Positions 5,145 to 33,073 of a DNA stretch of 39,860 bases are shown here, in pieces. A program made the translations under genes and the position numbers. The notes under the pieces are model-generated. The model made no database searches. It was not told the origin of the DNA and saw only the letters and a list, made by a program, of their open reading frames with translations. The DNA comes from a virus: the UHGV virus genome UHGV-0224961. One strand, written 5' to 3'. Each line of letters starts with the position of its first letter. The stretch's first letter is position 1.

Positions 5145-5234
5145 TTACCTCGGTCTGTTACCGTTGAGGTAATGATTATGCGTATTTGGTTTGGTGTCAA
5201 TAGATATGAGTTAAAAAAATTACCCGTTAGGTAA
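5145..5234. promoter_or_regulatory. OL-like operator cluster: two perfect TTACC-N5-GGTAA palindromes (5158-5172, 5220-5234) plus a TTACC half-site
   Basis: Palindromes lie between the repressor terminator and the first leftward early gene. Confidence 0.6.
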
Positions 5235-5245
5235 TCAAATAAGCA

Positions 5246-5269
5246 ATAAAAAAGCCGCCAGAAGGCGGC
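5246..5269 (-). terminator. Rho-independent terminator of the repressor transcript
   Basis: gccgcc-agaa-ggcggc stem-loop with an A-run on the plus strand (U-run on minus) immediately 3' of the repressor stop. Confidence 0.65.
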
Positions 5270-5291
5270 TTACTTACTGAAAAATATGTTT

Positions 5292-5876
5292 TTATTGTTT
5301 GTTTTTTTCGTTCTGGTTGATGACAAATTCAATGTAACTTTCGATCTTTGCCTTCTCTGTTTCAGGTAACAATGCGTAGCGCGAGCGGTCATAGTTGATA
5401 GTCGCGGGGTCGTGCGGGTGAATCAGTAATTCATATCCGTGACGCCCAAATGCGGATGCAACATTCTCCAGGGTGGAAATGGAAACGCTGACCTCATTGT
5501 TTAACAGGCGGCTGATTGTTACCTGGGCGACGCCGGATGCGCGGTGAAGTTTTCCCTGCGTTGAAAGGTCGCGGCTTTCGCTCATCCAGCGTTCCAGGTT
5601 GTGAGCCGCCAGTTGACCAATGTCGCTTGGTCCGACAGGCTGAAAACCTTCCTGAGAAAGCGAGCGATCGATATCAAGCCAGTTACGGGGTTTATTGGCG
5701 GCAGCTTCAATTTTTCGCGCAACCTGGTCGCCGATAACCTTCTTGCCAAGAGCCCAGCGGTTTACCAGATTTGCCTGAGTTCCAAGTTTTTCAGCCATCC
5801 GCGTCTGAACACCATTGAATTCACGGTCGATCAAGTCGTTGAGATTTTGCCTGCGGACGTCCTGGATACTTTTCAT
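5292..5876 (-). CDS. CI-like repressor with two HTH-like regions and no S24 peptidase domain
   Basis: 194 aa; N-terminal XRE-type HTH (TRMAEKLGTQANLVNRWALGKK); second HTH-like segment (ASGVAQVTISRLLNNE); no G-S-M / Lys autocleavage motifs seen; flanked by operator clusters. Confidence 0.75.
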   Translation of the reverse strand: MKSIQDVRRQNLNDLIDREFNGVQTRMAEKLGTQANLVNRWALGKKVIGDQVARKIEAAANKPRNWLDIDRSLSQEGFQPVGPSDIGQLAAHNLERWMSESRDLSTQGKLHRASGVAQVTISRLLNNEVSVSISTLENVASAFGRHGYELLIHPHDPATINYDRSRYALLPETEKAKIESYIEFVINQNEKNKQ

Positions 5877-5931
5877 TTTCTGGAAAATCGCCTCATATCT
5901 GAATCAGAAGATGATTCAATTTAAAGCAATA

Positions 5932-5994
5932 TTACCCAACAGGTAAATGCACCTCATGGGTAACTATCCTTGATTTTTGTTACCTTATAGGTGA
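5932..5994. promoter_or_regulatory. OR-like operator cluster: TTACC-CAACA-GGTAA (5932-5946), GCACC-TCATG-GGTAA (5949-5963), TTACC-TTATA-GGTGA (5980-5994)
   Basis: One perfect and two imperfect palindromes in the 154-bp divergent region between the repressor and the cro-like gene. Confidence 0.65.
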
Positions 5995-6030
5995 ATATTT
6001 ATTATCTGAAATAAATATCAGGCAATAGCT

Positions 6031-6261
6031 ATGAGCGATAACGGACATTTCGATTTCAAAAAGCACTGGCTTGCACTTACTCCGGATGAGCGTGAAGCCT
6101 TCGCACAGGAAGCCGGAACGACGAGTCACTATATCCAGACTCACTTAACAGGTAAGCGCAAAATGCCAGGTAAGGTATTGATGAATGGGCTTTTTAAAGC
6201 CTGTAAATCAAGACAATGGCTGCGCTCAAAAGCAGAACTGGCATACTTCTTCTACTCATGA
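6031..6261 (+). CDS. Cro-like HTH protein
   Basis: 76 aa; divergent from the repressor; HTH-like segment LTPDEREAFAQEAGTTSHYIQTHLTGKRK. Confidence 0.65.
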   Translation: MSDNGHFDFKKHWLALTPDEREAFAQEAGTTSHYIQTHLTGKRKMPGKVLMNGLFKACKSRQWLRSKAELAYFFYS

Positions 6262-6411
6262 TATCCAGCCACAACCCTCTGTAGACCGCCATCCGGCGGT
6301 CTTTTCATATCTATTCGCACCTTGAGGGTAATAAAAAACCAAATGTGGTTGATCTTTTTTTTGTGTCAGCACAAAATGACCGTAATCCCAATACAAATAA
6401 CAGGGCTTACC

Positions 6412-6612
6412 ATGGAAATCATTACACGTATTGATGCCGCAAAGCGCGGACTTAAACGCTACTACACCGGAAAACCATGTAAGCACGGACATGACAGTGA
6501 ACGCTGGGTTTACAACGGACACTGTGTTGAGTGCACCATGGAATCAAACCGTCGTATCAGGGCAGAGATTAAGCAGATCATGATTAATTCCTCCCCACAA
6601 CATTCAAGCTGA
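6412..6612 (+). CDS. Small Cys/His-rich putative zinc-binding protein
   Basis: 66 aa from ATG 6412 (the track ORF extends to 6322); CKHGH...HCVEC cluster. Confidence 0.45.
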   Translation: MEIITRIDAAKRGLKRYYTGKPCKHGHDSERWVYNGHCVECTMESNRRIRAEIKQIMINSSPQHSS

Positions 6613-6627
6613 TAGCGGAGATTAATC

Positions 6628-7419
6628 ATGAGCAGACATGCAACAGATTGGGCCTGGGAGACAGATCCAGGTAGCTCGTCATTAAAGCTCATACTGCTCT
6701 CGATGGCTGACAGAGCAGATGAATATAACCTCTGCTACCCCAGCATAGAACGCCTCGTTAAAGACACTTGCCTGAATAAAAAAACCGTGCAGGCCGGGCT
6801 TATATCGCTCATGAAAATGGGGCTTATTTCAGATACCGGAGAGAGAAAGGGAGCGACAAAAAGAGTGCGGGTTTTCTCTCTTAATATAACCAAAAACGGG
6901 AACATTAAAGGCAACCGGGAGGGGGGCAATGAACCCGAAAACGGTAATGTTACCGAAAACGGGAATATACCCAAAAACGGGATGTTGAATGATCCCAAAA
7001 ACGGGATCCAGAACCAGTCATATAACCAGTCATTTAACCAAGAGAGGGAGAGCAGGACAAAAAACGGGGATTCTGTGCATCATGACCCCAACGCAAACAA
7101 CGCCGTGATGAATAACTTTGTTCCTCCTGGTGGGCCAGGGCAATTAGGCAAATTTGTCATGCATGAACAATGGCAGCCATCAGATGACTTTCTTCGGAAA
7201 AGCTCATTGCAGGGGATCTACCTGGACAGTCTGCCAACGGCACAGGAACTTGCAGAGTTCAGAATTTACTGGATGGCTGAGGGTAAGGCATACCATCAGG
7301 CACAGTGGGAGCAGAAGCTGGCAAGGCGGCTGCAGATTAGCAGACAGAAGCAATCAACATTACCTGATAACAACGTTCCGCACTGGAACAGCCCTGAAGC
7401 ATGGGAGGATTTCTTGTGA
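6628..7419 (+). CDS. Replication initiator (lambda O-like role; N-terminal winged-HTH-like domain)
   Basis: 263 aa; iterons embedded in the central coding region; immediately upstream of the P-like gene. Confidence 0.7.
   Translation: MSRHATDWAWETDPGSSSLKLILLSMADRADEYNLCYPSIERLVKDTCLNKKTVQAGLISLMKMGLISDTGERKGATKRVRVFSLNITKNGNIKGNREGGNEPENGNVTENGNIPKNGMLNDPKNGIQNQSYNQSFNQERESRTKNGDSVHHDPNANNAVMNNFVPPGGPGQLGKFVMHEQWQPSDDFLRKSSLQGIYLDSLPTAQELAEFRIYWMAEGKAYHQAQWEQKLARRLQISRQKQSTLPDNNVPHWNSPEAWEDFL
6889..7070. repeat. Origin-like iteron array inside the initiator gene
   Basis: Six or more copies of CC(C/G)AAAACGG(G/T)A at 6890, 6934, 6953, 6970, 6994 and 7057, followed by a direct repeat aaccagtcat x2 (7012-7033). 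Confidence 0.6.
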
Positions 7420-8201
7420 ACAACGTTTTTACCGCGATACAAAACCGTGACGGAGAAGCCCTTTCTCGCATGTCAGGTTATGAGCATCAGTACGTCAACA
7501 ATGACAATGTGGTGAACATGTCAGCAGAGAGGCTTGTTGATGCTCTTTTCAAACAGCTGAAACAGCTGTTTCCGGCGGCAGTGGTAACCAACCTGAAGAC
7601 GCCAGAGCAGGAAGTTGCTGCAAAACAGCAGTGGATTGCTGCGTTTGCCGAAGGTGGGATCCGAACCCGTGAACAGGTTTCTGCTGGTATGCGCCACGCC
7701 CGCGCCAGTGAATCTCCGTTCTGGCCGTCGCCAGGGCAATTTATCAAGTGGTGCAAAGACAGCAAGATGGTTCTTGGCGTCACCATTGACGATGTGATGG
7801 CGGAGTTTCACCGGTACAGCAAGGAAAAAAGTTTATATCCTGGTGGTCCCGAAAGATTCCCGTGGCGACATCCGGTTATGTACTGGGTCGTATGTGATAC
7901 CCGCCGTGCAATGTATCAGCGCCAGCTTAGCGAGATTGAGGTTGAGAAACACGCGCGCAGGCTGCTCGATGATTGGGCGAAAAAGGTGGCTTCCGGACAG
8001 CAGATACCCGATCCGGTGATCAGCATACAGGCAAAGCCAGAACCCATGAGTACGCCTCCGGACACAGGGAGAGACGTTTACCATCCACCAGGGCGAAGTT
8101 TCGGGTGTATGCCTAACGCCGCCACCCTGGGGGGAATAACACCGGCGCAGTGGCTGATGGAGGAATACAGGCGGGGAAAGGCGGCAGGATTTATCAAGTA
8201 A
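7416..8201 (+). CDS. Replication protein P-like (DnaB helicase loader)
   Basis: SPGQFIKWCKD and FPWRHPVMYWVV match lambda P segments as recalled; GTG 7416 with GGAGGA RBS, overlapping the initiator stop. Confidence 0.8.
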   Translation: MNNVFTAIQNRDGEALSRMSGYEHQYVNNDNVVNMSAERLVDALFKQLKQLFPAAVVTNLKTPEQEVAAKQQWIAAFAEGGIRTREQVSAGMRHARASESPFWPSPGQFIKWCKDSKMVLGVTIDDVMAEFHRYSKEKSLYPGGPERFPWRHPVMYWVVCDTRRAMYQRQLSEIEVEKHARRLLDDWAKKVASGQQIPDPVISIQAKPEPMSTPPDTGRDVYHPPGRSFGCMPNAATLGGITPAQWLMEEYRRGKAAGFIK

Positions 8202-8206
8202 TACCA

Positions 8207-8226
8207 GCGCGATAGCGCATTTTTTT
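8207..8226 (+). terminator. Weak terminator-like hairpin with T-run after the P-like gene
   Basis: gcgc-gata-gcgc followed by tttttt; stem only 4 bp. Confidence 0.3.
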
Positions 8227-8238
8227 ACGCCCACATGA

Positions 8239-8315
8239 TTACCTGATGGGTAATAAAATATTCTAGTATCTATTGATTTCATGTCTTATGTGGTTTTTAA
8301 TTACCTAAGGGGTAA
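8239..8315. promoter_or_regulatory. Two perfect TTACC-N5-GGTAA palindromes (8239-8253, 8301-8315) bracketing a TATCTA-N14-TATGTGGTT promoter-like motif
   Basis: Second palindrome ends 3 nt before the ATG at 8319. Confidence 0.55.
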
Positions 8316-8318
8316 ATC

Positions 8319-8663
8319 ATGAGAAAACAGATACAGGCTCTTGGTCGGCTCAAAACAGGCCAGATGAACAAAACAGAATCTGCGTATTGCCAGCACCTTG
8401 AGCTGCGTAAACGTGCAGGGGAAATCGCATGGTATCGATTCGAGGGTATCAAGCTGCGGTTAGCTGACAACACGTTCTATACGCCAGATTTCGCTGTGAT
8501 GCTCGCCACCGGAGAGATGGAACTGCACGAAGTGAAAGGTTTCTGGACCGACGACGCCAGGGTGAAAACCAAAGTCGCCGCAGATCAGTATCCGTTCCGA
8601 ATCATCGGGGTAACGGTTAAACCAAAGAAAGCAGGTGGTGGCTGGAACATCGAAGAGTTCTGA
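8319..8663 (+). CDS. Small PD-(D/E)xK-like nuclease (VRR-NUC/DUF1064-like)
   Basis: 114 aa; PDF...ELHEVKG arrangement consistent with a D-E-K nuclease core. Confidence 0.5.
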   Translation: MRKQIQALGRLKTGQMNKTESAYCQHLELRKRAGEIAWYRFEGIKLRLADNTFYTPDFAVMLATGEMELHEVKGFWTDDARVKTKVAADQYPFRIIGVTVKPKKAGGGWNIEEF

Positions 8664-8724
8664 ATCGACGATCTTTTTAGTTATCAATGTAATCAATAAG
8701 TTATGTGGATAAGCGAGGGTAAAG

Positions 8725-9153
8725 ATGGAAAGTAATATCAAAGGGTTAGTTGCCGCCGGGCATGAGATGGCTTCGGAACTGAAAGCAGAATGTGGTGCCG
8801 TTGATATGCGCAGTGTGGCAAAGCTGATCAGCGATTTGGCAACGCAACTGGAAGTGCAACTGGTGCGTGCTAATGCGCTGGCGGCGGAGAATGCAAAGCT
8901 GAAGAAGTTCTGCAAAGACGCTGCATTCGATGCCGATTACGAAGCAGAGCTAGGTATGGAGCGTGGTGGATTCAGTGATGCGCTTAACGAAATCAAAACC
9001 CCAGCCACCGATGCTTTTCTGGCTGAAGTACGGGCGCAGGGCGTGGAGATGGCTATGGAACATATGCAGTCGAGCGGTTCGTTAACATTTGGAGATTGCT
9101 ACATATCACTTAACGAGTTCGCCGCAGAGCTTCGCAAAGGAGGCAGCCAGTGA
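8725..9153 (+). CDS. Ea22-like family protein (paralog 1)
   Basis: C-terminal ATDAFLAEVRAQGV...FAAELRKGGSQ shared with the ORF at 10263. Confidence 0.55.
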   Translation: MESNIKGLVAAGHEMASELKAECGAVDMRSVAKLISDLATQLEVQLVRANALAAENAKLKKFCKDAAFDADYEAELGMERGGFSDALNEIKTPATDAFLAEVRAQGVEMAMEHMQSSGSLTFGDCYISLNEFAAELRKGGSQ

Positions 9154-9638
9154 CTGGAAATGCAGCAATCCTCGACATGTGCTGTGGCAGTCGCATGTTC
9201 TGGTTCGATAAGAATGACGACCGGGCGATATTTAGCGATATCAGAAAGGAAGAGCACACATTATGTGATGGACGACGCCTGATTATCAGTCCTGACCTGA
9301 TAGCTGATTTTCGTGCACTACCATTTGCAGACGCATCCTTTTCGATGGTTGTATTCGACCCTCCGCATCTTGAGCGTGTTGGTGATAACGCCTGGATGGG
9401 AAAGAAATATGGACGGCTGAATAAAGATACCTGGCGTGATGATTTGCGGCAGGGGTTTAAAGAAGCCTTTCGGGTGTTGTGGCCACACGGCGTTCTGATT
9501 TTTAAATGGAATGAAACGCAAATACCTGTTCGCCAGATATTGGCACTGACCGACAGAAAGCCTGTTATCGGTCAACGAACAGGAAAGGGTGACAAGACCC
9601 ACTGGATTATTTTTATGAAGGAGGCATCCAGTGAGTAA
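9150..9638 (+). CDS. Putative DNA amino-methyltransferase (DPPH motif)
   Basis: 162 aa; LDMCCGS (motif I-like) and VVFDPPH (motif IV-like); GTG start 6 nt after AAAGGAGG. Confidence 0.55.
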   Translation: MTGNAAILDMCCGSRMFWFDKNDDRAIFSDIRKEEHTLCDGRRLIISPDLIADFRALPFADASFSMVVFDPPHLERVGDNAWMGKKYGRLNKDTWRDDLRQGFKEAFRVLWPHGVLIFKWNETQIPVRQILALTDRKPVIGQRTGKGDKTHWIIFMKEASSE

Positions 9639-10275
9639 CCGTTTTTACATGATGTGCTTGCGTGAAACTGTGGGTAATAACGCCTCATTCCATTGCCATA
9701 ACGGCAATGGTTACAGTTCTGATATCGATCGCGCTCATGTTTACACGCTAGAAGAAGCCCAAAAAGCCTGGAATTGTGGGCGAGATATCGATCAGCCTGT
9801 TTGTGCCGATAGTGTGGATGCAATTGCTGTGTGGCACGTTGATTGCCAGTACATCCCTACAGAAAGCCTGATTGAGTCAGATTGCACTGCGTATGTGGCC
9901 TACAAAAAAGGTAGCTGGAACGGCAACGATGTTTACTGGCTTCAACACGGTGGATTGCCAACAGATGATTTCAGTAAAGCGACCATCTTTAGCGTCGCCA
10001 ACAAAAACGAACCAGGAATAGTTTGGTTGCCATTTCCCATTGCTGATGCAGCAAAGCGCCGGACGTTCAATATCAATAACTTTAACCGCAGAACAATGGT
10101 TCAGGGCGCAGGTTTGGTCATGCCTGACTGGTTGAAAGAGCAGAACAGAAGAAAGAAGTCGCGAAGCGGGAAGGTGCGTTGGAATTGTCCGCATTGCGGA
10201 AAAATCACCTGGCAGTACAGCCCATATGATTTTGAAGGCTGTAGTGATTACAACTGTGAAGGATGGCGAGAATGA
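9631..10275 (+). CDS. Hypothetical protein with C-terminal zinc-ribbon (CPHCG...C..C)
   Basis: 214 aa; overlapping gene starts typical of phage operons. Confidence 0.5.
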   Translation: MSNRFYMMCLRETVGNNASFHCHNGNGYSSDIDRAHVYTLEEAQKAWNCGRDIDQPVCADSVDAIAVWHVDCQYIPTESLIESDCTAYVAYKKGSWNGNDVYWLQHGGLPTDDFSKATIFSVANKNEPGIVWLPFPIADAAKRRTFNINNFNRRTMVQGAGLVMPDWLKEQNRRKKSRSGKVRWNCPHCGKITWQYSPYDFEGCSDYNCEGWRE

Positions 10276-10955
10276 CAATTGACTATCAGGTACTGCGCGA
10301 GGCGGCGGAACAGGCAACGCAAGATGAATGGGTAGCATATATTTTGCCGGGGCAAAACGGCACTTATCCTGCGCATACGTCTGAGGGTAGGCATTGCGGA
10401 TACTTTATTGACTGGCCTGGCATTGATGGACAGAGAAACGCTGGTGCCAATGCCCGTTATATCGCGGCTATCCCACCCAAAGTTGTGCTGGCTCTACTGG
10501 ATGAAATTAAGCGCCTGGAGGACACAAATATTGATGCTATGTGTCGAATTGCAGAGCTTGAGACTAATCTCGCGGCGCTGGTGGCGGAGAATGTGGGGCT
10601 AAAGGCGATATGTGATGACCGTCGCAGGTTCATCATGAATGGGGTGCAGATGGGTTATATCAAGGTGCCAGCAGCGGAAACAGATCCAGACCTTGAGACA
10701 ATTCGCATTGCTATATCACCACAAAAGCCCATTCCAGCCACTGATGCTTTCCTGTCTGAAGTGTGGGCGCAGGGGGTGGATGCTGCTATAGAAGCTGCAA
10801 AAAATCTGGTGGTCCAAGAATATGAGTATAAGGATTTCAAAGCGGCGCAGAGTGATTGCTGTATGCACCCTGGTTCAGACCTGGTAGGGAAGGTTGAAAT
10901 GACTGAGTGGTTAGTTGACTTTGCTGCCCAGCTTCGCAAAGGAGGCAACCAGTGA
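10263..10955 (+). CDS. Ea22-like family protein (paralog 2, mosaic)
   Basis: N-terminus IDYQVLREAAEQA resembles the ORF at 10952; C-terminus resembles the ORF at 8725. Confidence 0.55.
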   Translation: MARMTIDYQVLREAAEQATQDEWVAYILPGQNGTYPAHTSEGRHCGYFIDWPGIDGQRNAGANARYIAAIPPKVVLALLDEIKRLEDTNIDAMCRIAELETNLAALVAENVGLKAICDDRRRFIMNGVQMGYIKVPAAETDPDLETIRIAISPQKPIPATDAFLSEVWAQGVDAAIEAAKNLVVQEYEYKDFKAAQSDCCMHPGSDLVGKVEMTEWLVDFAAQLRKGGNQ

Positions 10956-11377
10956 GCGAAATTAATTACCAGGCACTGCGTGAGGCAGCACAGAACGCGA
11001 AAGATTTAGGTGAGATTAAGAATTACAAGCGAGGTGAGCAAGCTGTTGCCGAATTTGAGTCCTTAATAACGCCACGCATTGTGCTGGCGCTTCTGGATGA
11101 ACGGGAAAGAAACCAGCAATACATAAAACGCCGCGACCAGGAGAACGAGGATATTGCTCTTACTGTTGGGAAGCTGCGTGTTGAGCTTGAAGCCGCAGAG
11201 AAGCGCATTGCAGAACTGTCTGCTAGCCACAGCAAATTGCGCGACACAATGGCTGGCATCCACAACACAATCCGAATGGATGGCGGCTATACGCCACTGG
11301 CAGCAATCCTTAACGCTGCTAAACGCGCATATGAAGAATCAGCAAGCGCAGCTGGCATTCGCATCAAAGGAGAGTGA
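10952..11377 (+). CDS. Ea22-like family protein (paralog 3), coiled-coil
   Basis: N-terminus INYQALREAAQ and PRIVLALLDE shared with paralog 2. Confidence 0.55.
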   Translation: MSEINYQALREAAQNAKDLGEIKNYKRGEQAVAEFESLITPRIVLALLDERERNQQYIKRRDQENEDIALTVGKLRVELEAAEKRIAELSASHSKLRDTMAGIHNTIRMDGGYTPLAAILNAAKRAYEESASAAGIRIKGE

Positions 11378-11580
11378 GTGATATGGATAAAAATACCCCT
11401 GCTTACTGGAGTTTATCACTTGATACCGAATGTCCCAAATGTGGTCACAATTTCGATCTGCTTTGTGATCCAGATTTTTGGGAGTTTTCTGGAGCTAAAC
11501 AGGCATGTGAAGAAATAAAAGGTTACGAAACATGCTGTCCAGAATGTAACCATGAATTTAAAACAGATTTCGTGTATTGA
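11374..11580 (+). CDS. Small zinc-ribbon protein (CPKCG...CPEC)
   Basis: 68 aa with two CxxC pairs. Confidence 0.5.
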   Translation: MSDMDKNTPAYWSLSLDTECPKCGHNFDLLCDPDFWEFSGAKQACEEIKGYETCCPECNHEFKTDFVY

Positions 11581-11590
11581 GGCATAACAA

Positions 11591-12493: not shown

Positions 12494-12843
12494 TGGACTA
12501 TTCACAGTTAAGTGATTTTGAAATTAACAGAATGGTAGGAGACATAATTTTTAAAGGCCTTTGGGCGTGTAAACCGGAAACATCAGGGAATAACACCAAC
12601 AAATGGTATTACGGAAATACTGATACAACTTTTGAGCCATTAAACCCTTTACCTGACTACTGCAATAATCCATCGGATGCATGGCCTATTATTGTTGATA
12701 ATAAAATCAGTCTAACCTGCCACCAATCTCGCGGTGAGTGGTCAGCTGTTTTTAATACCGAGAATATTTGCTTTCATGCGAATAATCCACTCCGAGCCGC
12801 CATGATTGTATTTCTCATGATGCAGGAAAATCAGAATGGCTAA
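12490..12843 (+). CDS. NinX-like (DUF2591-like) protein
   Basis: N-terminus MDYSQLSDFEINRMV resembles NinX family proteins as recalled. Confidence 0.4.
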   Translation: MMDYSQLSDFEINRMVGDIIFKGLWACKPETSGNNTNKWYYGNTDTTFEPLNPLPDYCNNPSDAWPIIVDNKISLTCHQSRGEWSAVFNTENICFHANNPLRAAMIVFLMMQENQNG

Positions 12844-13174
12844 ATCAGCAGCAGAGCGCAAAGCCGCTCAGAGAGCCAGACAAGCTGCATCTGGTGTGCG
12901 TAAGCTGGAAATTGTGCTTGATGCTCAGGAAATTGAAATGCTGGAGCGTAACTGTGCCACGCGTCGCCCCGGGCGTGCGCCTTACGAATTTGGTGAGTAT
13001 ATAGCGTTACTGATCCGCCAGGATGATGCACGCGTGCGCGGGCGTATAAAATCGATCAGCAGAAAATGTTGCGGTAAGTGCGGCGAGAGAGTTCCAGTTA
13101 ATTCATGCCCGTGTAATGGTGACTCGCAATGCTGGATGACTAAAGGCTGGCATGAAACGAAATTAATAGTGTGA
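12836..13174 (+). CDS. Hypothetical protein with C-terminal Cys cluster; candidate regulator
   Basis: 112 aa; basic N-terminus; C-terminal CCGKCG...CPC...C; stop codon lies inside the GTGACATGTCAC palindrome. Confidence 0.5.
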   Translation: MAKSAAERKAAQRARQAASGVRKLEIVLDAQEIEMLERNCATRRPGRAPYEFGEYIALLIRQDDARVRGRIKSISRKCCGKCGERVPVNSCPCNGDSQCWMTKGWHETKLIV

Positions 13175-13182
13175 CATGTCAC
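13171..13182. promoter_or_regulatory. Perfect 12-bp palindrome GTGACATGTCAC at an operon end
   Basis: Same palindrome at 32649-32660 and a variant at 15436-15447. Confidence 0.45.
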
Positions 13183-13223
13183 GAGTAGATTATGCATGAT
13201 GAATTTGATGGGTTTTGAATACT

Positions 13224-13249
13224 GCCGCCAACTATGGCGGCTTTATTTT
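13224..13249 (+). terminator. Rho-independent terminator before the terminase operon
   Basis: gccgcca-acta-tggcggc followed by tttatttt. Confidence 0.65.
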
Positions 13250-13260
13250 GCATGGTACTA

Positions 13261-13293
13261 TTACCACAACGGTAACTATTACCACGGTGGTTA
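13261..13293. promoter_or_regulatory. Operator-like TTACC-ACAAC-GGTAA (13261-13275) plus imperfect TTACC-ACGGT-GGTTA (13279-13293) immediately upstream of terS
   Basis: Same palindrome family as at the repressor gene. Confidence 0.5.
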
Positions 13294-13295
13294 TG

Positions 13296-13889
13296 ATGCC
13301 TGCTGAACCTAAAACCTATAAACGCAAATCAACGCAATTTAAGCCACTAACAGCAATGCAGGAGGCTTATTGCCAGTCATACATCAAAACGCCTGAAAAC
13401 CAGACTCAGGCAGCGATTAACGCAGGATTCTCCCCAAATACAGCGGCAGTTAAAGCCAGTGTCATGATGCGCGATGAACGCATTCAAAAACGGATTGCCG
13501 AGTTGATGGAGGAGCGCAACAAACGAATGCGCGTCAGTGCTGATTACGTTCTCATGCGCCTGGTGGAGATCGACCAGATGGACGTGATAGACATCCTCAA
13601 CGACGATGGGAGCCTTAAACCAATCCGCGAGTGGCCGAAAATCTGGCGCACTACGCTTAGCGGCTTTGATCTGTCATCGACCATCATGAACATGAACGAG
13701 GATTCGATAGAGACAATCCTCAAAAAAATTAAATGGCCTGACAAGGTGAAGAACCTTGAGCTGATTGGTAAGCACGTCGATGTCAATGCATTCAAAGAAC
13801 GCCTGGATGTTAATGTGAATGTGACAATTGCTGATCGCATAGCGGCAGCCAGGAAGAGACTGAAAGAACGTCAGGATGGCAATCAGTGA
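13296..13889 (+). CDS. Terminase small subunit
   Basis: Directly upstream of and overlapping TerL; start taken at ATG 13293/13296 (the track ORF begins at a TTG at 13215 that runs through the operator and terminator). Confidence 0.65.
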   Translation: MPAEPKTYKRKSTQFKPLTAMQEAYCQSYIKTPENQTQAAINAGFSPNTAAVKASVMMRDERIQKRIAELMEERNKRMRVSADYVLMRLVEIDQMDVIDILNDDGSLKPIREWPKIWRTTLSGFDLSSTIMNMNEDSIETILKKIKWPDKVKNLELIGKHVDVNAFKERLDVNVNVTIADRIAAARKRLKERQDGNQ

Positions 13890-15361: not shown

Positions 15362-15411
15362 TCCGCTGGTGGGGATAATGTCGTTGATATCCTCTGATGA
15401 GGATAAAACAA

Positions 15412-15447
15412 AGCCAGCTTATCGGCTGGCTGTTTGTGACGTGTCAC
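15412..15447 (+). terminator. Hairpin (agccagc/gctggct) followed by palindrome GTGACGTGTCAC downstream of TerL
   Basis: Weak T-run; may act as a partial terminator or protein-binding site. Confidence 0.3.
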
Positions 15448-15488
15448 GACATTAAAATCCATCGAATTCGTATTTCATGATTCACACC

Positions 15489-15677: not shown

Positions 15678-15754
15678 TGGCGTGGCATGCAGGATTCGAA
15701 CCTGCGACCAACCGCTTAGAAGGCGGTTGCTCTGTCCAACTGAGCTAATGCCAC
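15678..15754 (-). tRNA. tRNA-Arg (anticodon UCU), phage-encoded
   Basis: Reverse complement folds as a canonical 77-nt cloverleaf: acceptor GTGGCAT/ATGCCAC, D-stem GCTC/GAGC, anticodon stem ACCGC/GCGGT, loop CTTCTAA, T-stem GCAGG/CCTGC, TTCGAAT loop, discriminator G, CCA encoded. Confidence 0.85.
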
Positions 15755-16076: not shown

Positions 16077-16143
16077 TTACCTGAAAGGTAATAATTCTCG
16101 CGTTAAATGTCAACTATCTACGATAAATAAATCATATGTGGTT
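16077..16143. promoter_or_regulatory. Perfect operator TTACC-TGAAA-GGTAA (16077-16091) plus TATCTA-N14-TATGTGGTT motif (16115-16143) upstream of the head operon
   Basis: A minus-strand TTGACA -35-like hexamer at 16108-16113 points leftward toward the tRNA. Confidence 0.5.
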
Positions 16144-16181
16144 AAATTGGTAATAATTTAATTGCGTACGGAGTCATTGAT

Positions 16182-16388: not shown

Positions 16389-16402
16389 CCGGAGTCATTG
16401 AA

Positions 16403-20125: not shown

Positions 20126-20563
20126 ATGATCACCGACAAACTGTTGATGTTCTCCGAAGCTCAGGCGGTTACGAATACCGCGGCTTCTACTGACGTAATC
20201 GATCTCGGTCCAATTGATGGAAACCGTCGCGATATCGGCGTGGGTTATCCGCTTGAGTTTTGGGTGCTGGTTAACGAAGCCGCCACGGCAAGTGGTGAGG
20301 CAACTGTAAACATCCAGTTGCAGACGAGTGAGAATAACAGCTCATGGTCCACTATTTATGATAGTGGCGCACTGGCAAAGGCTACCCTGACAGCAGGTAA
20401 ACGAGTTGTTTCTGCAAAGGTGCCTGCCGGTGTTCAGCGATATCTGCGTGTTAACTACTCCGTCGCAACTGGCCCACTAACGGCCGGCAAATTCACTGCG
20501 GGTATCAGTCTGGATGTTGATGCCAATACGCCGTACCCGATCCGCTCAAAAGTAACTGGTTAA
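20126..20563 (+). CDS. Virion-associated protein (capsid decoration candidate)
   Basis: 145 aa, beta-rich composition, immediately after the capsid gene. Confidence 0.5.
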   Translation: MITDKLLMFSEAQAVTNTAASTDVIDLGPIDGNRRDIGVGYPLEFWVLVNEAATASGEATVNIQLQTSENNSSWSTIYDSGALAKATLTAGKRVVSAKVPAGVQRYLRVNYSVATGPLTAGKFTAGISLDVDANTPYPIRSKVTG

Positions 20564-27881: not shown

Positions 27882-29680
27882 GTTACTTTGGCCTTAATCC
27901 AGTAAACCAGAATCAGCAGCTTGACGAAGCAGCATCAAATCCAGCTGGCTTTAACAGCGATGTTGGTTTTTTCGACAATGCTGTAGGAGCGGCATTGTCT
28001 GGTTTGTACTCAGGGCTGGTGGCAAAGCCAGATCAGTTGCTATGGGCAGGGATGGATAAAATCGTATCCCCGATTGCTCAGTTTGTTAACGAAAACACCT
28101 CGCTCAATGATACTTCAGTTTCATACATTGCCGAGCAGAGAAAACTAGCAGAGCAGCAGGTTAAGCGGCTGACGCCTGATGCCGCGACAACTGGAACCGC
28201 TGGGCAGGTTCTTTATGGGTTGTTCGATATGGGCGGGCAGGCTGTTGTCGGTACAACGCTCGGTGGTTCTGTCGGAGGTGCAGCAGCGGTAACTTCGCTA
28301 CAGGGTTTTTCTGAGTTTGAACGGCTGACAGCACAGGGTGTTGATTTCAGGACGGCGCAGGAAGCGGGATTAGTGCAGGGCATTACTGCTGGTGCCGGAA
28401 CGCTGATCCCTATGAGCCTCGGGTTACGTGCTGGTGGTGCGCTGGCGGAAGGTGTGGCGGCTCAGCTTGCGCGGACGGGTGAGAGTTCAGTGCGACGCGC
28501 CGCAGCAACAGCAGTACGTGCAACGCCAGATATTGCCTATGCCGCAGGTACAAATATTGCGTTCGGTATGGCACAGCGTGGGCTTACTGCAAAAACACTT
28601 CGTGATGGTGGCTATAGCGAAATGGCTAACCAGTATGATGTGTTGGATCGACAGGCAATTGCTATTGATGCTGTTCTTGGGGTGGCGTTTGGTGGTGTCG
28701 GCAGATTTATTAACTCTCGCGGCGAGTCTACAAACGCACCAAATTTTTCACCAGTTGATATCGATGCTGCACTGGCGGCGAATGCCGCTCATCATGCTGA
28801 AATTGATATTGCGCCCGGCGTGCCGATCAACGTGCTTTCGCGCAATTCTCACATTCAGGCTCTGCGAAAAGCTATGTCTGATGTTAGCCAGGGGAGACCT
28901 GTAGACGTTGCCAGCATTGTTGAGTCTGCATCTTTCAGTGAAATTCCTTGGCGCAAGAGTCTGCTGTCTCAGGCAGTTAATGAGGCTCTGTCATCTGTAG
29001 ATGATGGAGTAACGGCGCGCGCTATAGAAAATCGGTTGCTTGAAGAACAGGCCGCGCAGCTTTTGCCGCGTGGAGATAGACAGGTTTACCAGTCTGAAAT
29101 CGCTAATAGCCAACGAATTATTGAAAATCTCACTGAACAGCGTGCACAAATTCTTGCAGAAGAGCCAACCGGTAGCGGTAAAGCTTTGTCTCGTGCTCGA
29201 TCAGATAAACAGGCCAGACTTCGCGATATTGATCAACGAATCCGGCAGGCACAAGAACGCCTGGAATTTTCCCGTAACGCGTTGGCACCGCACGAGCCTG
29301 GCGGTCAGTTTTTTGAAGCTCGAGCAGAACTGGCTCGGAGACAGCAGGCAGAAAGTGAACTTAATGCTCAGGCTGTTTCATTCTATAAAACAGCAGAGGT
29401 CAGGACGCCAGACGAAGTAGCTCCTTTTGAGCCTGATAAAATATTGCAACAGGCAGAACAAAAAATGATGTCAGATCAGGCAGGAGATATTGATCTGCGC
29501 ATAGCTGAAGACTCGCTGCTTGAATCACCTGACATGATAATCACCGTGCTGGATGATGATGGTAATCCACAATCGCGCAGTGCGCGTGAAGTACTGGATG
29601 AAGCGAACAGGGAAAGTGAGCAGGTAATACAGGATTCCAGCCTGTTTGATGTTGCTGTGGCGTGTTTCTTGAGAGGTTAA
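27878..29680 (+). CDS. Internal core / ejection protein
   Basis: 600 aa; Ala/Gly-rich N-terminal half. Confidence 0.55.
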   Translation: MSYFGLNPVNQNQQLDEAASNPAGFNSDVGFFDNAVGAALSGLYSGLVAKPDQLLWAGMDKIVSPIAQFVNENTSLNDTSVSYIAEQRKLAEQQVKRLTPDAATTGTAGQVLYGLFDMGGQAVVGTTLGGSVGGAAAVTSLQGFSEFERLTAQGVDFRTAQEAGLVQGITAGAGTLIPMSLGLRAGGALAEGVAAQLARTGESSVRRAAATAVRATPDIAYAAGTNIAFGMAQRGLTAKTLRDGGYSEMANQYDVLDRQAIAIDAVLGVAFGGVGRFINSRGESTNAPNFSPVDIDAALAANAAHHAEIDIAPGVPINVLSRNSHIQALRKAMSDVSQGRPVDVASIVESASFSEIPWRKSLLSQAVNEALSSVDDGVTARAIENRLLEEQAAQLLPRGDRQVYQSEIANSQRIIENLTEQRAQILAEEPTGSGKALSRARSDKQARLRDIDQRIRQAQERLEFSRNALAPHEPGGQFFEARAELARRQQAESELNAQAVSFYKTAEVRTPDEVAPFEPDKILQQAEQKMMSDQAGDIDLRIAEDSLLESPDMIITVLDDDGNPQSRSAREVLDEANRESEQVIQDSSLFDVAVACFLRG

Positions 29681-29685
29681 ATTAA

Positions 29686-32160
29686 ATGAGACAGGAATGT
29701 ATACAAGCGGTCCAGCAGGCGGCGCAGCGCACGTTAACGGCGCGAGAAATACAGAACATTGAAGACCGCATTTATCGAAATATGCGCTCCATTGCTCGTG
29801 ATGACCCGATGTCGTGGCGACAACTTTCCGAATCAGAACGGTTGTATCGTGCAGCACAATTGGCATCTGAAGAATTACAGCGAGAAGCGGCATTAAAGAA
29901 ACGTCGTGTGGCCCTCACTATAGCCGCACGTCAGAGATTGGATAAATTTATCAATAGCTATCAAGGGGCTGATGGGAAACTTGGCGCTCTTAACCGTACT
30001 ATTGCTTTTAATGCAGACGGTAAATCGAATTTCCTCTCTGTTGAATCCAGAACAAAAGCCACCCGTGATTATGCATTGAGTCAATTGCAGGAGGCATTCG
30101 AAGCAGTTGATCCTCGCTTTTTTGGTCTGTTTGAAGATGAAGCGGGCGTACGTGACCTGGTATATGAAATGCGGGGGCAAAATACTGGCAATGCTAAAGC
30201 AAGAAAAGGTGCTAAGGCGTGGAGAGAAGTTACAGAGCTGCTGCGCCGCAGGTTTAATGATGCTGGTGGGGACATTGGCTATCTCGAAAACTGGGGGATC
30301 CCTCAACATCATTCTATGGAAAAGGTTGGGGCGGTATCAAAAGATAAATGGGTTAGCGATGTTATAGGTAAGCTGGATCGCAAATATTATACCCGAGCCG
30401 ATGGACAACTGATGAACGATGCCGAGTTGTCTGCATTTCTTGGAGAGGCTTATAACACGATCGCTACTGGTGGGCTGAATAAGCTTACTGATACCGGAAT
30501 GCGAATTTCCGGCGCACGTGCTAACCGTGGTAATGCATCACGACAGATACATTTCAAAGATGCAGATTCCTATCTGCAATATCAGCAACTTTATGGCGAT
30601 CGCTCTCTATGGGAAATCATGGTCGGTCACCTTGAAGGTATCAGTAAAGATATTGCACTGGTGGAAACATATGGCCCAAACCCCGATCATGTTTTCCGCT
30701 CTCTTCTTGATCAGGTGAAGGCAGAAACGGCAACAGCTAACCCGAGTAAAACCGGTAAAGTCGAGCGGCTGGCGAACAACACAGAGAATCTGTACAACTT
30801 TATTTCCGGAAAGACACAGCCTGTAGCGAATCCGCACATCGCGCGATGGTCTGACAATATCCGCAACTGGCTGGTTGCCAGCAGACTCGGATCCGCGTTG
30901 CTGTCATCGTTCTCTGATCTTGGAACCATGTATCTGTCTGCGAAGGTTACCAACCTTCCAATGAACCAGTTATTCCGCAACCAGCTTGAAGCTATGGACC
31001 CAACGAACCGTACAGAACTTGCGCGGGCGCGCCGCGCTGGTCTGGCGATGGAATCTCTACTTGGCAGCGTTAACCGCTGGGCGATGGATAATATGGGGCC
31101 GTCTGTGTCTCGTTGGGCTGCAACGGCGGTAATGCGTGCCAGTGGGCTTACAGCATGGTCAGATGCGCACAAGCGCGCCTATGGCGTAACCATGATGGGA
31201 AGCCTGGGAGAAGTAGTGTCACGGACACCAGACCTTCGTAGCCTCGATGATTCTGATTTTCGTATCCTGAAAAGCAAAGGGATTACTGACACAGACTGGA
31301 GCGTATGGAAGCTGGCGCAACAGGAGGACTGGGGGAACGGCAATAATACGATGCTGACACCGGAAAGCATTATGCGTATCCCTGATTCAGCAGTTAAACA
31401 TCTTGGTGAGCCTGAACGCGTGAAATTTGAGGCAATGCGTAAACTGCTCGGTGCCGTAACTGAAGAAGTTGATATGGCTGTTATTACACCGGGAGCACGT
31501 GAGCAACTGATAACCGGTTCTGGTATTCAGCGTGGAACATGGAAAGGTGAATTAACGAGAAGTGTTTTCCTGTTTAAATCGTTCCCTATCTCGGTGGTTA
31601 TGCGTCACTGGTCACGCGCTATGGGTATGCCGTCTGCTGGTGGGCGTGCGGCATATATTGCGACGTTTATTGCCAGTACGACCATTCTTGGCGCTTTGTC
31701 GCAGCAACTTAACGACCTTGCGTCTGGTCGTAATCCTCGCGAGATGACAGGAGAAGATGCTGCTAAATTTTGGCTTGGTGCTCTACTGAAAGGTGGTGGT
31801 CTTGGCCTTTACGGTGACTTTTTATTGTCAGATCACACTAGGTACGGAAGCGGCGCGCTGGCGTCGATGCTTGGCCCGGTAGCTGGTCTGGTTGATGACG
31901 TAGTGAAGATTGCTCAGGGCATACCGTTAAATGCTGTGGAAGGGAAGAGTGAGCAGACTGGTGGTGATCTGGTGAAGCTGGGGAAAGGTTTGATGCCAGG
32001 TGCGAATCTCTGGTACTTAAAGGCGGCTCTCGATCATATGATCTTTAACCAGATGCAGGAGTATTTTTCACCAGGCTATTTGCGTAAAATGGAGCAACGT
32101 TCGAAGAAAGAGTTTAACCAGACATACTGGTGGCGACCTCAGGATGTCACTCCGCAATAA
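29686..32160 (+). CDS. Internal core / ejection protein (gp16-like position)
   Basis: 824 aa; last large gene before the tailspike region. Confidence 0.55.
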   Translation: MRQECIQAVQQAAQRTLTAREIQNIEDRIYRNMRSIARDDPMSWRQLSESERLYRAAQLASEELQREAALKKRRVALTIAARQRLDKFINSYQGADGKLGALNRTIAFNADGKSNFLSVESRTKATRDYALSQLQEAFEAVDPRFFGLFEDEAGVRDLVYEMRGQNTGNAKARKGAKAWREVTELLRRRFNDAGGDIGYLENWGIPQHHSMEKVGAVSKDKWVSDVIGKLDRKYYTRADGQLMNDAELSAFLGEAYNTIATGGLNKLTDTGMRISGARANRGNASRQIHFKDADSYLQYQQLYGDRSLWEIMVGHLEGISKDIALVETYGPNPDHVFRSLLDQVKAETATANPSKTGKVERLANNTENLYNFISGKTQPVANPHIARWSDNIRNWLVASRLGSALLSSFSDLGTMYLSAKVTNLPMNQLFRNQLEAMDPTNRTELARARRAGLAMESLLGSVNRWAMDNMGPSVSRWAATAVMRASGLTAWSDAHKRAYGVTMMGSLGEVVSRTPDLRSLDDSDFRILKSKGITDTDWSVWKLAQQEDWGNGNNTMLTPESIMRIPDSAVKHLGEPERVKFEAMRKLLGAVTEEVDMAVITPGAREQLITGSGIQRGTWKGELTRSVFLFKSFPISVVMRHWSRAMGMPSAGGRAAYIATFIASTTILGALSQQLNDLASGRNPREMTGEDAAKFWLGALLKGGGLGLYGDFLLSDHTRYGSGALASMLGPVAGLVDDVVKIAQGIPLNAVEGKSEQTGGDLVKLGKGLMPGANLWYLKAALDHMIFNQMQEYFSPGYLRKMEQRSKKEFNQTYWWRPQDVTPQ

Positions 32161-32169
32161 GGAAGTGTT

Positions 32170-32343
32170 GTGTTTTTAATTATTTTGAGTGTGATAATTT
32201 CTGGTGGGTTGTTATTTATTGACCGCTACAAATATTTTCTTAACCCTCAGACTCAAGCTATTTGCTGGTTCATCTTTGTTGTGCAGGGAATAGTTCTTGT
32301 TGCAAGCCTTATTGAGGGGAGGCCTCTGATTTTTACTGGGTAA
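32170..32343 (+). CDS. Small hydrophobic protein (57 aa; GTG start)
   Basis: Hand-translated VFLIILSVIISGGLLFIDRYKYFLNPQTQAICWFIFVVQGIVLVASLIEGRPLIFTG; GGAAG RBS; below the ORF-track cutoff. Confidence 0.3.
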   Translation: MFLIILSVIISGGLLFIDRYKYFLNPQTQAICWFIFVVQGIVLVASLIEGRPLIFTG

Positions 32344-32355
32344 ATAGGTGACTAC

Positions 32356-32652
32356 ATGCAAGCTATAGGATTCATTGTTTATATCGTCGTTGGTCTTTTT
32401 CAGTTGGCAGCAATTATGGCTGGGCTTGAATCATGGTGGGGATTGCACTGGATAATTGCAGCCCCCATTGCTTTCATCGTGAGCTATATTCCATTTGTTG
32501 GAGCGATTGTTGGTATGGTTGGCGCTGTGGATGTATGGCGGTGGGAGTGGTGGCAGGCTGGCCTTCTCTTCTTTGGTGGGATCATCTTTGCTATTGTCTG
32601 CGGTGGAATGTCATCATTTTTCGAATGGCTATCATTCAGAAAAAGAGCGTGA
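32356..32652 (+). CDS. Small integral membrane protein (about 3 TM segments)
   Basis: 98 aa, very hydrophobic; stop codon lies inside GTGACATGTCAC. Confidence 0.5.
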   Translation: MQAIGFIVYIVVGLFQLAAIMAGLESWWGLHWIIAAPIAFIVSYIPFVGAIVGMVGAVDVWRWEWWQAGLLFFGGIIFAIVCGGMSSFFEWLSFRKRA

Positions 32653-32660
32653 CATGTCAC
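32649..32660. promoter_or_regulatory. Perfect 12-bp palindrome GTGACATGTCAC
   Basis: Identical to 13171-13182; followed by the hairpin at 32661-32678. Confidence 0.45.
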
Positions 32661-32686
32661 AGGCCGCTCTTGCGGCCTTTAAATTT
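32661..32686. terminator. Terminator-like hairpin aggccgc-tctt-gcggcct between convergent genes
   Basis: 7-bp stem followed by ttaaattt. Confidence 0.5.
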
Positions 32687-32942
32687 ACCGGGTTTGTTTT
32701 CGTAATTGTTCGGCACAATAGTCGAGATGTGTTTGCAGATCCCGCATAGACATCTGTGAGCTGGTGACGTAGTTAATCAGTGCAGTCAGTTCGGCAAGTG
32801 GGCCATCGACATTAAATCCATCCTTATCGAGATCCCGGAGTAATTTCATCAAGTGCGATCCCTCCACCAGTGACCTGACGCCTCCCGGCGTGTGAATCCT
32901 TTCGGTAAATCCGTCTTCCAGTGGATAGTGATACTGCTGCAT
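32685..32942 (-). CDS. Small protein (85 aa) behind a LexA box; candidate SOS-inducible antirepressor
   Basis: Start ATG 32942 with GGAGAAG RBS; LexA box 22-37 nt upstream; an alternative start at 33008 would place the box inside the coding sequence. Confidence 0.5.
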   Translation of the reverse strand: MQQYHYPLEDGFTERIHTPGGVRSLVEGSHLMKLLRDLDKDGFNVDGPLAELTALINYVTSSQMSMRDLQTHLDYCAEQLRKQTR

Positions 32943-32963
32943 CTTATCTTCTCCATGCAATAA

Positions 32964-32979
32964 CTGTATATTTATACAG
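32964..32979. promoter_or_regulatory. LexA (SOS) box CTGT-ATATTTAT-ACAG
   Basis: aACTGTATATTTATACAGTa matches the E. coli consensus TACTGT(AT)4ACAGTA with one spacer change; contains a TATAAAT -10-like element on the minus strand. Confidence 0.7.
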
Positions 32980-33018
32980 TAGCAAATAATTTGTTTGCTA
33001 TCCAGCACGTTTTGCGAA

Positions 33019-33073
33019 TCACCTGAAAGGTAATATCTGTTCGTATTTATGGGTTATCTATCCATATGTGGTT
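33019..33073. promoter_or_regulatory. Operator-like TCACC-TGAAA-GGTAA (33019-33033) plus TATCTA...TATGTGGTT motif (33055-33073) upstream of the tailspike
   Basis: Same motif family as at 8239 and 16077. Confidence 0.5.

Follow-up and report, generated by a model that had tools for sequence, protein, structure and literature searches.

The palindrome TTACC-N5-GGTAA, which recurs throughout the window (the whole stretch of DNA analysed, 39,860 nucleotides), is very probably, on sequence grounds, the operator of the Rep repressor of the prophage that carries it. The complete model, in which the 17-bp box ATTACC-N5-GGTAAT would be the Rep operator and each transcription unit would be shut off locally in the lysogen, is given a probability of roughly three in four. 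The window represents a Uetakevirus prophage of the phiV10/epsilon15 type, with guaA as its integration site; the immunity region of this prophage is present in 539 of 5,426 complete E. coli genomes (~10%). The boxes are an ordinary feature of such phages, their sequence and genome-wide placement being already known from the authors' public record of epsilon15 (GenBank AY150271.2 / NC_004775.2), where they are annotated as 'protein_bind, repressor, lysogeny'. All seven 'repressor' features of that record contain TTACC-N5-GGTAA, the annotated box being ATTACC-N5-GGTAAT, and boxes are annotated before terS, gp3 (head operon), the tailspike and the post-replication gene, as well as to the left of rep; these sites may themselves be predictions. 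A full-text literature search for operator descriptions in Uetakevirus found none.

An exact search of the whole window located seven perfect copies (5158, 5220, 5932, 8239, 8301, 13261 and 16077), in keeping with the seven starts listed in the preliminary description and not with the six that it counted; 0.02 copies are expected, and seven or more were obtained in none of 100 shuffles. When up to one mismatch was allowed, the window contained 12 sites against 0.66 expected, the one-mismatch sites being those at 5980, 13279 and 33019, which had been described before, and those at 136 and 36644, which had not. The four imperfect copies reported previously are real, each having one mismatch except that at 5949 (GCACCTCATGGGTAA), which has two and whose orthologue in epsilon15 and in Kp4865-1 is a perfect box. 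According to the gene map of this analysis, non-coding DNA makes up 5.8% of the prophage, and it holds all seven perfect sites (P ~2e-9 for the seven) and four of the five with one mismatch. The claim that the listed copies are confined to intergenic DNA therefore stands, with the proviso that 13261 and 13279 count as non-coding only if terS starts at ATG 13293/13296 and not at TTG 13215. The ATG start matches epsilon15 and phiv142-3, and the phiV10 RefSeq record probably places the terS start too far upstream. The site at 36644 was rejected as a box: it lies within a gene of the lysis cassette, its counterpart is absent in epsilon15, Tyrion and SPC32H, and the match is probably a chance one.

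The orthologous positions of the boxes were obtained from anchored alignments of 10 genomes. In a comparison of 11 orthologous boxes across five diverged genomes, identity reaches 97% in the half-sites, 51% in N5 and 61% in the flanks, and ACC and GGT are kept in 55 out of 55 boxes. Moreover, the spacings are rigid over the 10 genomes despite the divergence of the intervening DNA, amounting to 62 bp at PL (63 bp in one genome), 62 bp at the post-replication unit, 62 bp at the head operon and 50 bp at the tailspike. The accessory cassettes of relatives have boxes of their own, for example at 20497 in phiV10, at 5138 and 6153 in phiv142-3, and at 33333, 34385 and 34478 in TL-2011b.

The repressor and the elements connected with its inactivation are the following (here and below, boxes are given without strand):

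5292..5876, minus strand: rep, encoding a repressor of 194 aa; its N-terminus has an HTH, its C-terminus an HTH_3-like oligomerisation domain
32685..32942, minus strand: ant, encoding a small antirepressor of 85 aa, 87% identical to SPC32H Ant (E 4e-56)
32964..32979: LexA box CTGTATATTTATACAG, 22 bp upstream of ant

Residues 1-190 of Rep match PDB 5D50 (SPC32H Rep) with E 4e-42, and no S24 peptidase domain was found in the protein with Pfam or NCBIfam, the sole Pfam match being HTH_3. In repressors of the SPC32H/epsilon15 type, an N-terminal HTH is joined to a C-terminal domain for tetramerisation and Ant binding. Within the N-terminal HTH domain, NLVNRW is invariant across six diverged homologues while the whole of Rep drops to 42% identity; it is the probable recognition helix, and its invariance matches that of the half-sites. 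Rep is 100% identical to ORF21 of ZX5, overexpression of which lowered the mRNA of holin and endolysin by over 99.9% and abolished free phage, direct and indirect repression not being separated in that experiment (PMC9782041); promoters were predicted in the same paper, operators were not (PMC9782041). According to secondary accounts, Rep binds palindromic sites as a tetramer which is dismantled by Ant (PMC9638917, PMC9986798). The CTGT-N8-ACAG of the LexA box is kept in nine of 10 genomes, the right arm being ACAT in Kp4865-1. By analogy with SPC32H, whose Rep/Ant/LexA switch has reportedly been dissected structurally, Rep is most likely inactivated by LexA-controlled Ant, a route which the preliminary description overlooked. 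DNA damage would remove LexA from the ant promoter and Ant would then strip Rep from the DNA, whereas RecA cleavage would not be the route.

Around rep and the early promoters, the following features were recognized:

5158..5172: OL-down box, perfect; adjoins the -10 of the leftward PL and covers +1, a layout shared by 10 genomes
5200-5195 and 5177-5172, leftward: PL, TTGACA and AATCAT separated by 17 bp
5220..5234: OL-up box, perfect; 62 bp from OL-down, its centre at about -62 of PL
5932..5946: OR-a box, perfect; closest to rep
5949..5963: OR-b box, two mismatches (GCACC...GGTAA); 17 bp from OR-a
5970-5975 and 5993-5998, rightward: PR, TTGATT and GAATAT as read by eye; the alternative given by the tool is TTGTTA 5977 / TATTAT 6005
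5980..5994: OR-c box, one mismatch; within the spacer of PR
6031..6261, plus strand: p41, the gene in cro position, encoding a 76-aa HTH protein (phrog_35) that shares 78% identity with epsilon15 gp39, the HTH being invariant
6317..6331: weak box, two mismatches, overlooked previously; right after the terminator of the cro-like gene and before the replication unit

Boxes are therefore present on both sides of rep, which bears out the suggestion that they bracket the gene as OL and OR. The OL-up to OL-down distance is 62 bp in nine genomes and 63 bp in one, while the three boxes at 5932, 5949 and 5980, between the divergent rep and p41, make up a tripartite operator. Between PR and the terminator at 6283-6302 there is no gene other than p41, and the weak box that follows has one-mismatch orthologues in phiV10 (33112) and Tyrion (35365).

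The post-replication, terS and int units have these boxes:

8239..8253: post-replication upstream box, perfect; preceded by the terminator-like GCGCATTTTTTTAC
8301..8315: post-replication downstream box, perfect; 62 bp from 8239, adjoining the -10 and extending to the Shine-Dalgarno sequence of the gene that starts at 8319
13261..13275: terS box 1, perfect; its first position is the final T of an extended -10 (TGg TACTAT, 13253-13261) that is conserved
13279..13293: terS box 2, one mismatch; 18 bp from box 1, spanning the Shine-Dalgarno sequence and reaching the terS ATG
136..150: int box, one mismatch (TTACC-N5-GGTAT), overlooked previously; 43 bp upstream of int

The post-replication promoter (TTGATT 8273-8278, 17 bp, TTTAAT 8296-8301) was identified by eye and shows conservation in 10 genomes; it was not called by the promoter scan tool. 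The extended -10 of terS comes directly after the terminator at 13224-13241. As regards the int box, the GGTAT form occurs in 10 out of 10 genomes, and over the five diverged ones its half-sites are invariant and its N5 variable.

At the late promoters, boxes are accompanied in two cases by a partial copy, here called a pseudo-box:

16077..16091: head-operon box, perfect; centre at about -79 of a putative late promoter
16139..16153: head pseudo-box TGGTTAAATTGGTAA, in which the right half-site alone is intact; overlaps the -10 (TAATAA 16151-16156)
33019..33033: tailspike box, one mismatch (TCACC); in the gap separating the divergently oriented ant and tailspike genes, its centre at about -67 of the tailspike promoter
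33069..33083: tailspike pseudo-box TGGTTTTTCAGGTAA; beside the tailspike -10 and 50 bp from the box in 10 out of 10 genomes
36388..36402: lysis box, degenerate (two mismatches), overlooked previously; upstream of the lysis cassette

The head box and its half-site pseudo-box are exactly 62 bp apart in 10 of 10 genomes, and contact of Rep with the latter may be envisaged. The tailspike box is perfect in phiv142-3, epsilon15, Tyrion, SPC32H, BUCT554, 65FD and Kp4865-1. In relatives, the lysis box is perfect or has one mismatch and lies 65 bp before the -10 (six genomes); here it is degenerate because the lysis region was replaced. Both late pseudo-boxes retain one half-site, and the lysis promoter has no pseudo-box. 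The palindrome thus stands ahead of the post-replication, terminase, head and tailspike units, as had been proposed, and the orthologous boxes of epsilon15 are those annotated as repressor-binding. Nevertheless, with centres at about -79 (head), -67 (tailspike) and -70 (lysis), the late boxes are outside the core promoter. The promoter elements at terS, head and tailspike were read by eye from conserved alignments, a sigma-70 consensus scan having called no promoter at any of the three. The head, tailspike and lysis promoters are without a good -35, and a second conserved element is common to them; therefore, positive control is probably also present there, beside Rep.

Taken as a mechanism, the genome would be split into short transcription units, most of them opening with a terminator and each with its own Rep box or boxes, and Rep would silence every unit locally instead of acting on two early promoters followed by a cascade. 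At PL and the post-replication promoter, Rep would occupy one box that both adjoins the -10 and covers +1, together with a second one past the -35, at a distance of 62 bp on the upstream side; at PR, it would fill the -35/-10 spacer and two further boxes upstream toward rep; and at terS, tandem boxes extending from the extended -10 to the start codon would be covered. The positions of the boxes at these four promoters are those of classical occlusion. A tetrameric Rep, with its two DNA-binding pairs, could in addition bridge paired boxes about six helical turns apart, enclosing the promoter. The direct silencing of each operon put forward in the preliminary description is consequently supported by the box positions at the early and terS promoters and less so at head, tailspike and lysis, where the boxes are upstream of the core promoter and where we infer it; the upstream box might there act together either with the -10 half-site GGTAA or with a further factor that occupies the core promoter.

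Other readings of the boxes have to be weighed against local control by Rep. They could mainly serve as Rep roadblocks or insulators behind terminators, which stop read-through and do not control the local promoter. This would explain why, at three same-direction junctions, a terminator is followed within ~10-20 bp by a box (6283-6302/6317, GCGCATTTTTTTAC/8239 and 13224-13241/13261), and why the terS boxes are 0-35 bp ahead of the start codon. It is nonetheless considered rather unlikely, since conserved -35/-10 or extended -10 elements interlock with the boxes at PL, PR, the post-replication promoter and terS, no unit running in the same direction immediately precedes the head and tailspike boxes, and the sites are palindromic and without orientation bias, unlike known stoperators. 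A roadblock function and promoter occlusion are compatible with each other. A function at the RNA level, where UUACC-N5-GGUAA would form a hairpin in leaders and affect translation or stability, agrees with the overlap of boxes 8301 and 13279 with Shine-Dalgarno regions; yet it is very improbable, because boxes 5220, 8239, 16077 and 33019 are located upstream of the -35, so that no transcript would include them, the half-sites show neither variation nor compensatory changes, and the stem would be merely 5 bp long. Finally, the idea that the motif is a site for a host factor, or a repeat due to chance or composition, which has nothing but the AT-rich intergenic composition in its favour, can practically be discarded in view of the 0.02 sites expected and of the conservation of position and spacing across five diverged genomes. 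In the 200 kb of the E. coli K-12 chromosome searched, the one perfect site is within the coding sequence of yacL, and the 1.4 kb of host flank in the window has no perfect palindrome; in this sample the motif is rare in host DNA, unlike the common host element that had been considered before.

It is also conceivable, if quite improbable, that p41 is the protein using the boxes, at least the late upstream ones, turning early promoters down and late ones up in an early-to-late switch. In fact, p41 is alone on the PR unit before the terminator, has an HTH and a weak similarity to the N-domain of Rep, and is better conserved than Rep (78% vs 42%); the rigid distances of the late boxes at -67 to -79 would suit an activator as well as a repressor, and no Q/N homologue was found among the proteins scanned. 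On the other hand, the predicted recognition helices differ (SHYIQTH in p41, NLVNRW in Rep), the DNA target of p41 being purely conjectural, the late box centres at -79, -70 and -67 are not in a common helical phase, and the epsilon15 record credits the sites to the repressor. Homologues of Rep and p41 are confined to the same ~35 Uetakevirus records, and the boxes always co-occur; as Rep, the cro-like p41 and the boxes are always found together, co-occurrence cannot assign the boxes to one protein. A scan of viral contigs with the Rep alignment gave, among the 80 matches listed, only loci with 100% identity, offering no covariation to exploit. In phage ZF40, which has no Rep, no boxes were found.

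The absence of an N- or Q-like antiterminator, noted previously, was borne out for the proteins scanned, since no such family was found with Pfam, PHROGs or NCBIfam among the early-left proteins covered, the early-right ones (p41, p42, post-replication operon) and the regulator proteins, a scan restricted to protein families and, on the early-right side, to genes other than the two for replication (6628-8201). Candidate regulators are the PerC-like protein, the cro-like p41 and the following gene:

12836-13174: phrog_536 regulator, just before terS

This last protein has no Pfam family and its homologues are all named 'hypothetical'; its AlphaFold model is poor (pLDDT 64), with a strand-helix-helix core and an unmodelled Cys-rich tail, and Foldseek found no match to the model in the PDB. 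Its role as a late activator was left unsupported by ZF40, in which a 67%-identical homologue is beside a Q-like gene and both Rep boxes and the second element are lacking. We tentatively consider it possible that the late (head, tailspike, lysis) and the delayed (replication, accessory) units are under a two-key control undescribed for the genus. The first key would be a Rep box at a fixed distance upstream, and the second a conserved palindrome-like element (AACCATATATGGTT / CATATGTGGTT) in the -35/spacer region, to which a conserved phage factor may bind, p41, the PerC-like protein and the phrog_536 regulator being examples. If this were true, timing would come from an activator at promoters vetoed singly by Rep, and antitermination would not be needed.

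As a discovery, the boxes are of little weight; their practical value lies in the annotation of phiV10-type prophages, which, including O157 reporter and typing phages, have the same operator set, unannotated. Furthermore, the fixed spacings and the second conserved element provide concrete constructs for tests of silencing and activation at the late promoters.

The closest known systems are epsilon15 and SPC32H (PDB 5D50, 5D4Z), of the same genus, with the same 17-bp box, a homologous Rep, an 87% identical Ant and a LexA box before ant. They share with the present prophage the boxes to the left of rep, in the gap between rep and the cro-like gene, and at the post-replication unit, terS, the head operon and the tailspike. 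The Salmonella Rep is 42% identical to that described here (54% in the N-domain and 40% in the C-domain), PL has two boxes here and three in epsilon15, and the one-mismatch tailspike box and the degenerate lysis box differ from the epsilon15/SPC32H type. Records of the phiV10 type, for their part, lack operator annotation.

The likeness to lambda CI/Cro lies in the divergent rep and cro-like genes with three operators between them, one of these boxes being in the PR spacer and the upstream ones beside the rep promoter, and in the operators at a leftward PL. Unlike lambda, the S24 autocleavage domain is absent, induction would proceed via an antirepressor, N/Q homologues were not found, and operators also precede the replication, accessory, packaging, head, tailspike, lysis and int units. 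In P1, one immunity repressor, C1, controls many separate operons through scattered operators and induction involves an antirepressor (Coi/Ant), although the operators are asymmetric 17-mers and the late genes are controlled indirectly via the C1-controlled activator Lpa; the dispersed operators and the antirepressor are alike in both systems, whereas the sequences are unrelated. Global silencing of the prophage from tens of sites of a single repressor in short intergenic gaps is also known from the gp71 stoperators of L5 and the conserved inverted repeats of phiC31. While the L5 sites are asymmetric, orientation-dependent and block elongation, those of the present prophage are symmetric and interlocked with promoter elements, and many of them are upstream of the -35.

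The best explanation for the distribution of the palindrome TTACC-N5-GGTAA (the box) is one repressor, the 194-aa Rep (gene rep, 5292-5876, minus strand), with operators at every unit. The exact search of the window returned the seven perfect copies listed in the preliminary description (5158, 5220, 5932, 8239, 8301, 13261 and 16077) against 0.02 expected, while 12 boxes were found with up to one mismatch (0.66 expected) and 39 with up to two (10.9 expected). The imperfect copies described were all real, those at 5980, 13279 and 33019 having one mismatch and that at 5949 two. Intergenic placement was also upheld, since a map of the genes, drawn up from the list of ORFs together with the annotations of near-identical phages, located all seven perfect and four of the five one-mismatch boxes in the non-coding 5.8% of the prophage. 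The one-mismatch copy at 36644, within a lysis-cassette gene, was discarded as probably a chance match. Three weaker conserved boxes were absent from the preliminary description:

136-150, upstream of int
6317-6331, past the terminator of the cro-like gene
36388-36402, ahead of the lysis genes

Around the int-upstream box, TTACCTTAAAGGTAT, there is a longer inverted repeat, also conserved (GACGGTAT...ATACCGTC, 126-166). The epsilon15 record annotates this repeat with sites of two kinds, RNase III and integrase arm, so this box may serve two functions or some other function.

The window holds a prophage belonging to genus Uetakevirus (the epsilon15/phiV10 group), with about 97% identity to phiv142-3, phiV10, ZX5 and TL-2011b over the aligned parts. 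The attachment core ATTGAGTGGGAATGATT, which the ZX5 paper places at the guaA 3' end, was found at 38428-38444 and marks the right prophage end; therefore, the final 1.4 kb (38445-39860) is host DNA, where no boxes were found, and the window begins at the opposite junction. Among 5,426 complete genomes of E. coli, 539 carry the segment comprising rep and its flanking operators OL and OR, which makes the prophage a very common one. Between the terminase and head operons lies a tRNA-Arg gene (anticodon TCT; 15678-15754, minus strand), the same position being occupied in SPC32H and phiv142-3.

Box positions were identical in the 10 genomes compared. For 11 orthologous boxes in the five diverged genomes, mean pairwise identity was 97% in the ten half-site positions, 51% in the N5 spacer and 61% in the flanks, with ACC and GGT retained in 55/55 boxes. 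Rep itself falls to 42% identity, with the motif NLVNRW of its N-terminal HTH domain invariant; this is the probable recognition helix, which fits the unchanged half-site. As to a common host element, the motif proved scarce in host DNA (one perfect site, within yacL, in 200 kb of K-12 DNA). Phage ZF40 has no perfect box, and no Rep homologue either.

Rep contains HTH motifs and resembles SPC32H Rep (PDB 5D50) across its whole length (E 4e-42), and the domain search detected no S24 cleavage domain in it. According to secondary accounts, palindromic sites are bound by a tetramer of SPC32H Rep in which the pairs that bind DNA come from different dimers, and the tetrameric antirepressor Ant takes this assembly apart (PMC9638917; PMC9986798). 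Overexpression of ZX5 ORF21, which encodes a protein identical to Rep, abolished free phage, and the mRNAs of holin and endolysin fell by over 99.9% (ZX5 study).

The majority of units open with a terminator followed by a box. Two promoters share one layout:

PL (leftward early), TTGACA-17-AATCAT, called by the promoter scan
post-replication promoter, TTGATT-17-TTTAAT, with boxes 8239 and 8301, recognized by eye in the ten-genome alignment

In PL, box 5158 starts on the final base of the -10, and box 5220 lies 62 bp upstream. This spacing, about six helical turns, holds in 10/10 genomes at the post-replication promoter and in 9/10 at PL (63 bp in the other); a tetramer with two DNA-binding pairs would suit boxes paired in this way. 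At PR, the rightward early promoter, box 5980 occupies the spacer, 5932 and 5949 lying upstream and adjoining rep, and at the terminase gene terS the terminator (13224-13241) precedes an extended -10 of conserved sequence, TGnTAnTAT, which is directly joined to two tandem boxes extending to the start codon. Judged from sequence, these four layouts would represent classical occlusion. In the phiV10 RefSeq record (NC_007804.2, 41-715) terS starts at an upstream TTG, by which both boxes fall within coding sequence (window 13215-13296); the epsilon15, SPC32H and phiv142-3 records start at the ATG right behind the boxes (window 13293/13296), and the longer version probably reflects a wrongly assigned start.

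The promoters of the head, tailspike and lysis units have no good -35, and the scan called no promoter at head or tailspike. A strong box lies upstream of each core promoter, at about -79, -67 and -70, respectively, and its distance to the core is constant in every genome despite diverged intervening DNA: 62 bp at the head promoter, measured to a GGTAA half-site at its -10, 50 bp at the tailspike and, measured to the -10, 65 bp at lysis. At these promoters Rep probably works jointly with a partner located at the core. The segment between tailspike and lysis genes (36114-36520) is unlike that of phiV10 and epsilon15: its opposite strand is devoid of genes for an O-antigen acetylase or polymerase, and in place of the Rep box that normally precedes the lysis promoter stand a two-mismatch box and a promoter-like TTGACC-17-TAATAT with direct GGTAA repeats.

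A second palindrome-like element (core CATATNTGGTT, full form AACCATATATGGTT; 13 matches against 2.9 expected with up to one mismatch) occupies the region of the -35 and spacer in six promoters that have boxes:

6337-6350, second element
8283-8296, second element
16130-16143, second element
33060-33073, second element
36448-36461, second element
5178-5191, second element, weaker

The element is conserved across the genus, ends 7 bp ahead of the -10 at the head, tailspike and lysis promoters, and bears no annotation in the epsilon15 record. Three candidate regulators are encoded:

2281-2580, PerC-like protein
6031-6261, p41, HTH protein in the cro position, 78% identical to its epsilon15 counterpart
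12836-13174, phrog_536 'regulator', last gene before terS

The p41 gene is the sole one ahead of the first rightward terminator. The phrog_536 protein, with homologues in N15, phiKO2, ZF40 and Yersinia and Vibrio phages, has a basic N-terminal helix, conserved C-terminal cysteines (C79, C82, C91, C93 and C99) and a strand-helix-helix core predicted in a low-confidence model (pLDDT 64); it matched no Pfam family, and no tie to late control was found. As had been noted from the sequence, no N- or Q-family protein was detected among those scanned. The proposal drawn from this, direct silencing of each operon by the repressor, is plausible where early, accessory and packaging units are concerned and unproven for late units.

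Induction involves a further gene:

32685-32942, minus strand, ant, Ant homologue 87% identical to SPC32H Ant
32964-32979, perfect LexA box CTGTATATTTATACAG, 22 bp upstream of ant

The CTGT-N8-ACAG form is retained in 9/10 genomes, the right arm being ACAT in Kp4865-1. Kim and Ryu are said, in 2013, to have placed ant under LexA control. With an Ant homologue preceded by a LexA box, induction is expected to proceed via LexA and Ant rather than by repressor cleavage. Box 33019 separates ant from the tailspike gene and could act on both. Identity to the Salmonella phages is uneven (Rep 42%, about 40% in its C-terminal, Ant-binding half; Ant 87%; p41 78%; operator half-sites unchanged); the pairing of a near-constant Ant with such strongly diverged Rep C-domains is puzzling, as is the basis of immunity specificity. 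In relatives, accessory cassettes near ant, with Bro-N or other antirepressor-like genes and a toxin gene, bring their own perfect boxes (phiv142-3, 5138 and 6153; phiV10, 20497; TL-2011b, 33333, 34385 and 34478), and newly acquired genes seem to be put under Rep control.

Operators are not annotated in phiV10-type records, where terminators are, and none is named in the ZX5 paper, which names PL and PR. The epsilon15 record (RefSeq and the authors' GenBank entry) holds seven features 'protein_bind, repressor, lysogeny', all containing TTACC-N5-GGTAA:

one before terS
one before gp3, first gene of the head operon
one ahead of the tailspike gene
three on the left side of the repressor gene
one before the first gene past the replication genes

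The distribution ahead of separate units described for the window is the same. Both the observation and the main reading correspond to what has already been annotated in a phage of the same genus, and the reading rests on a structurally characterised Rep/Ant system.
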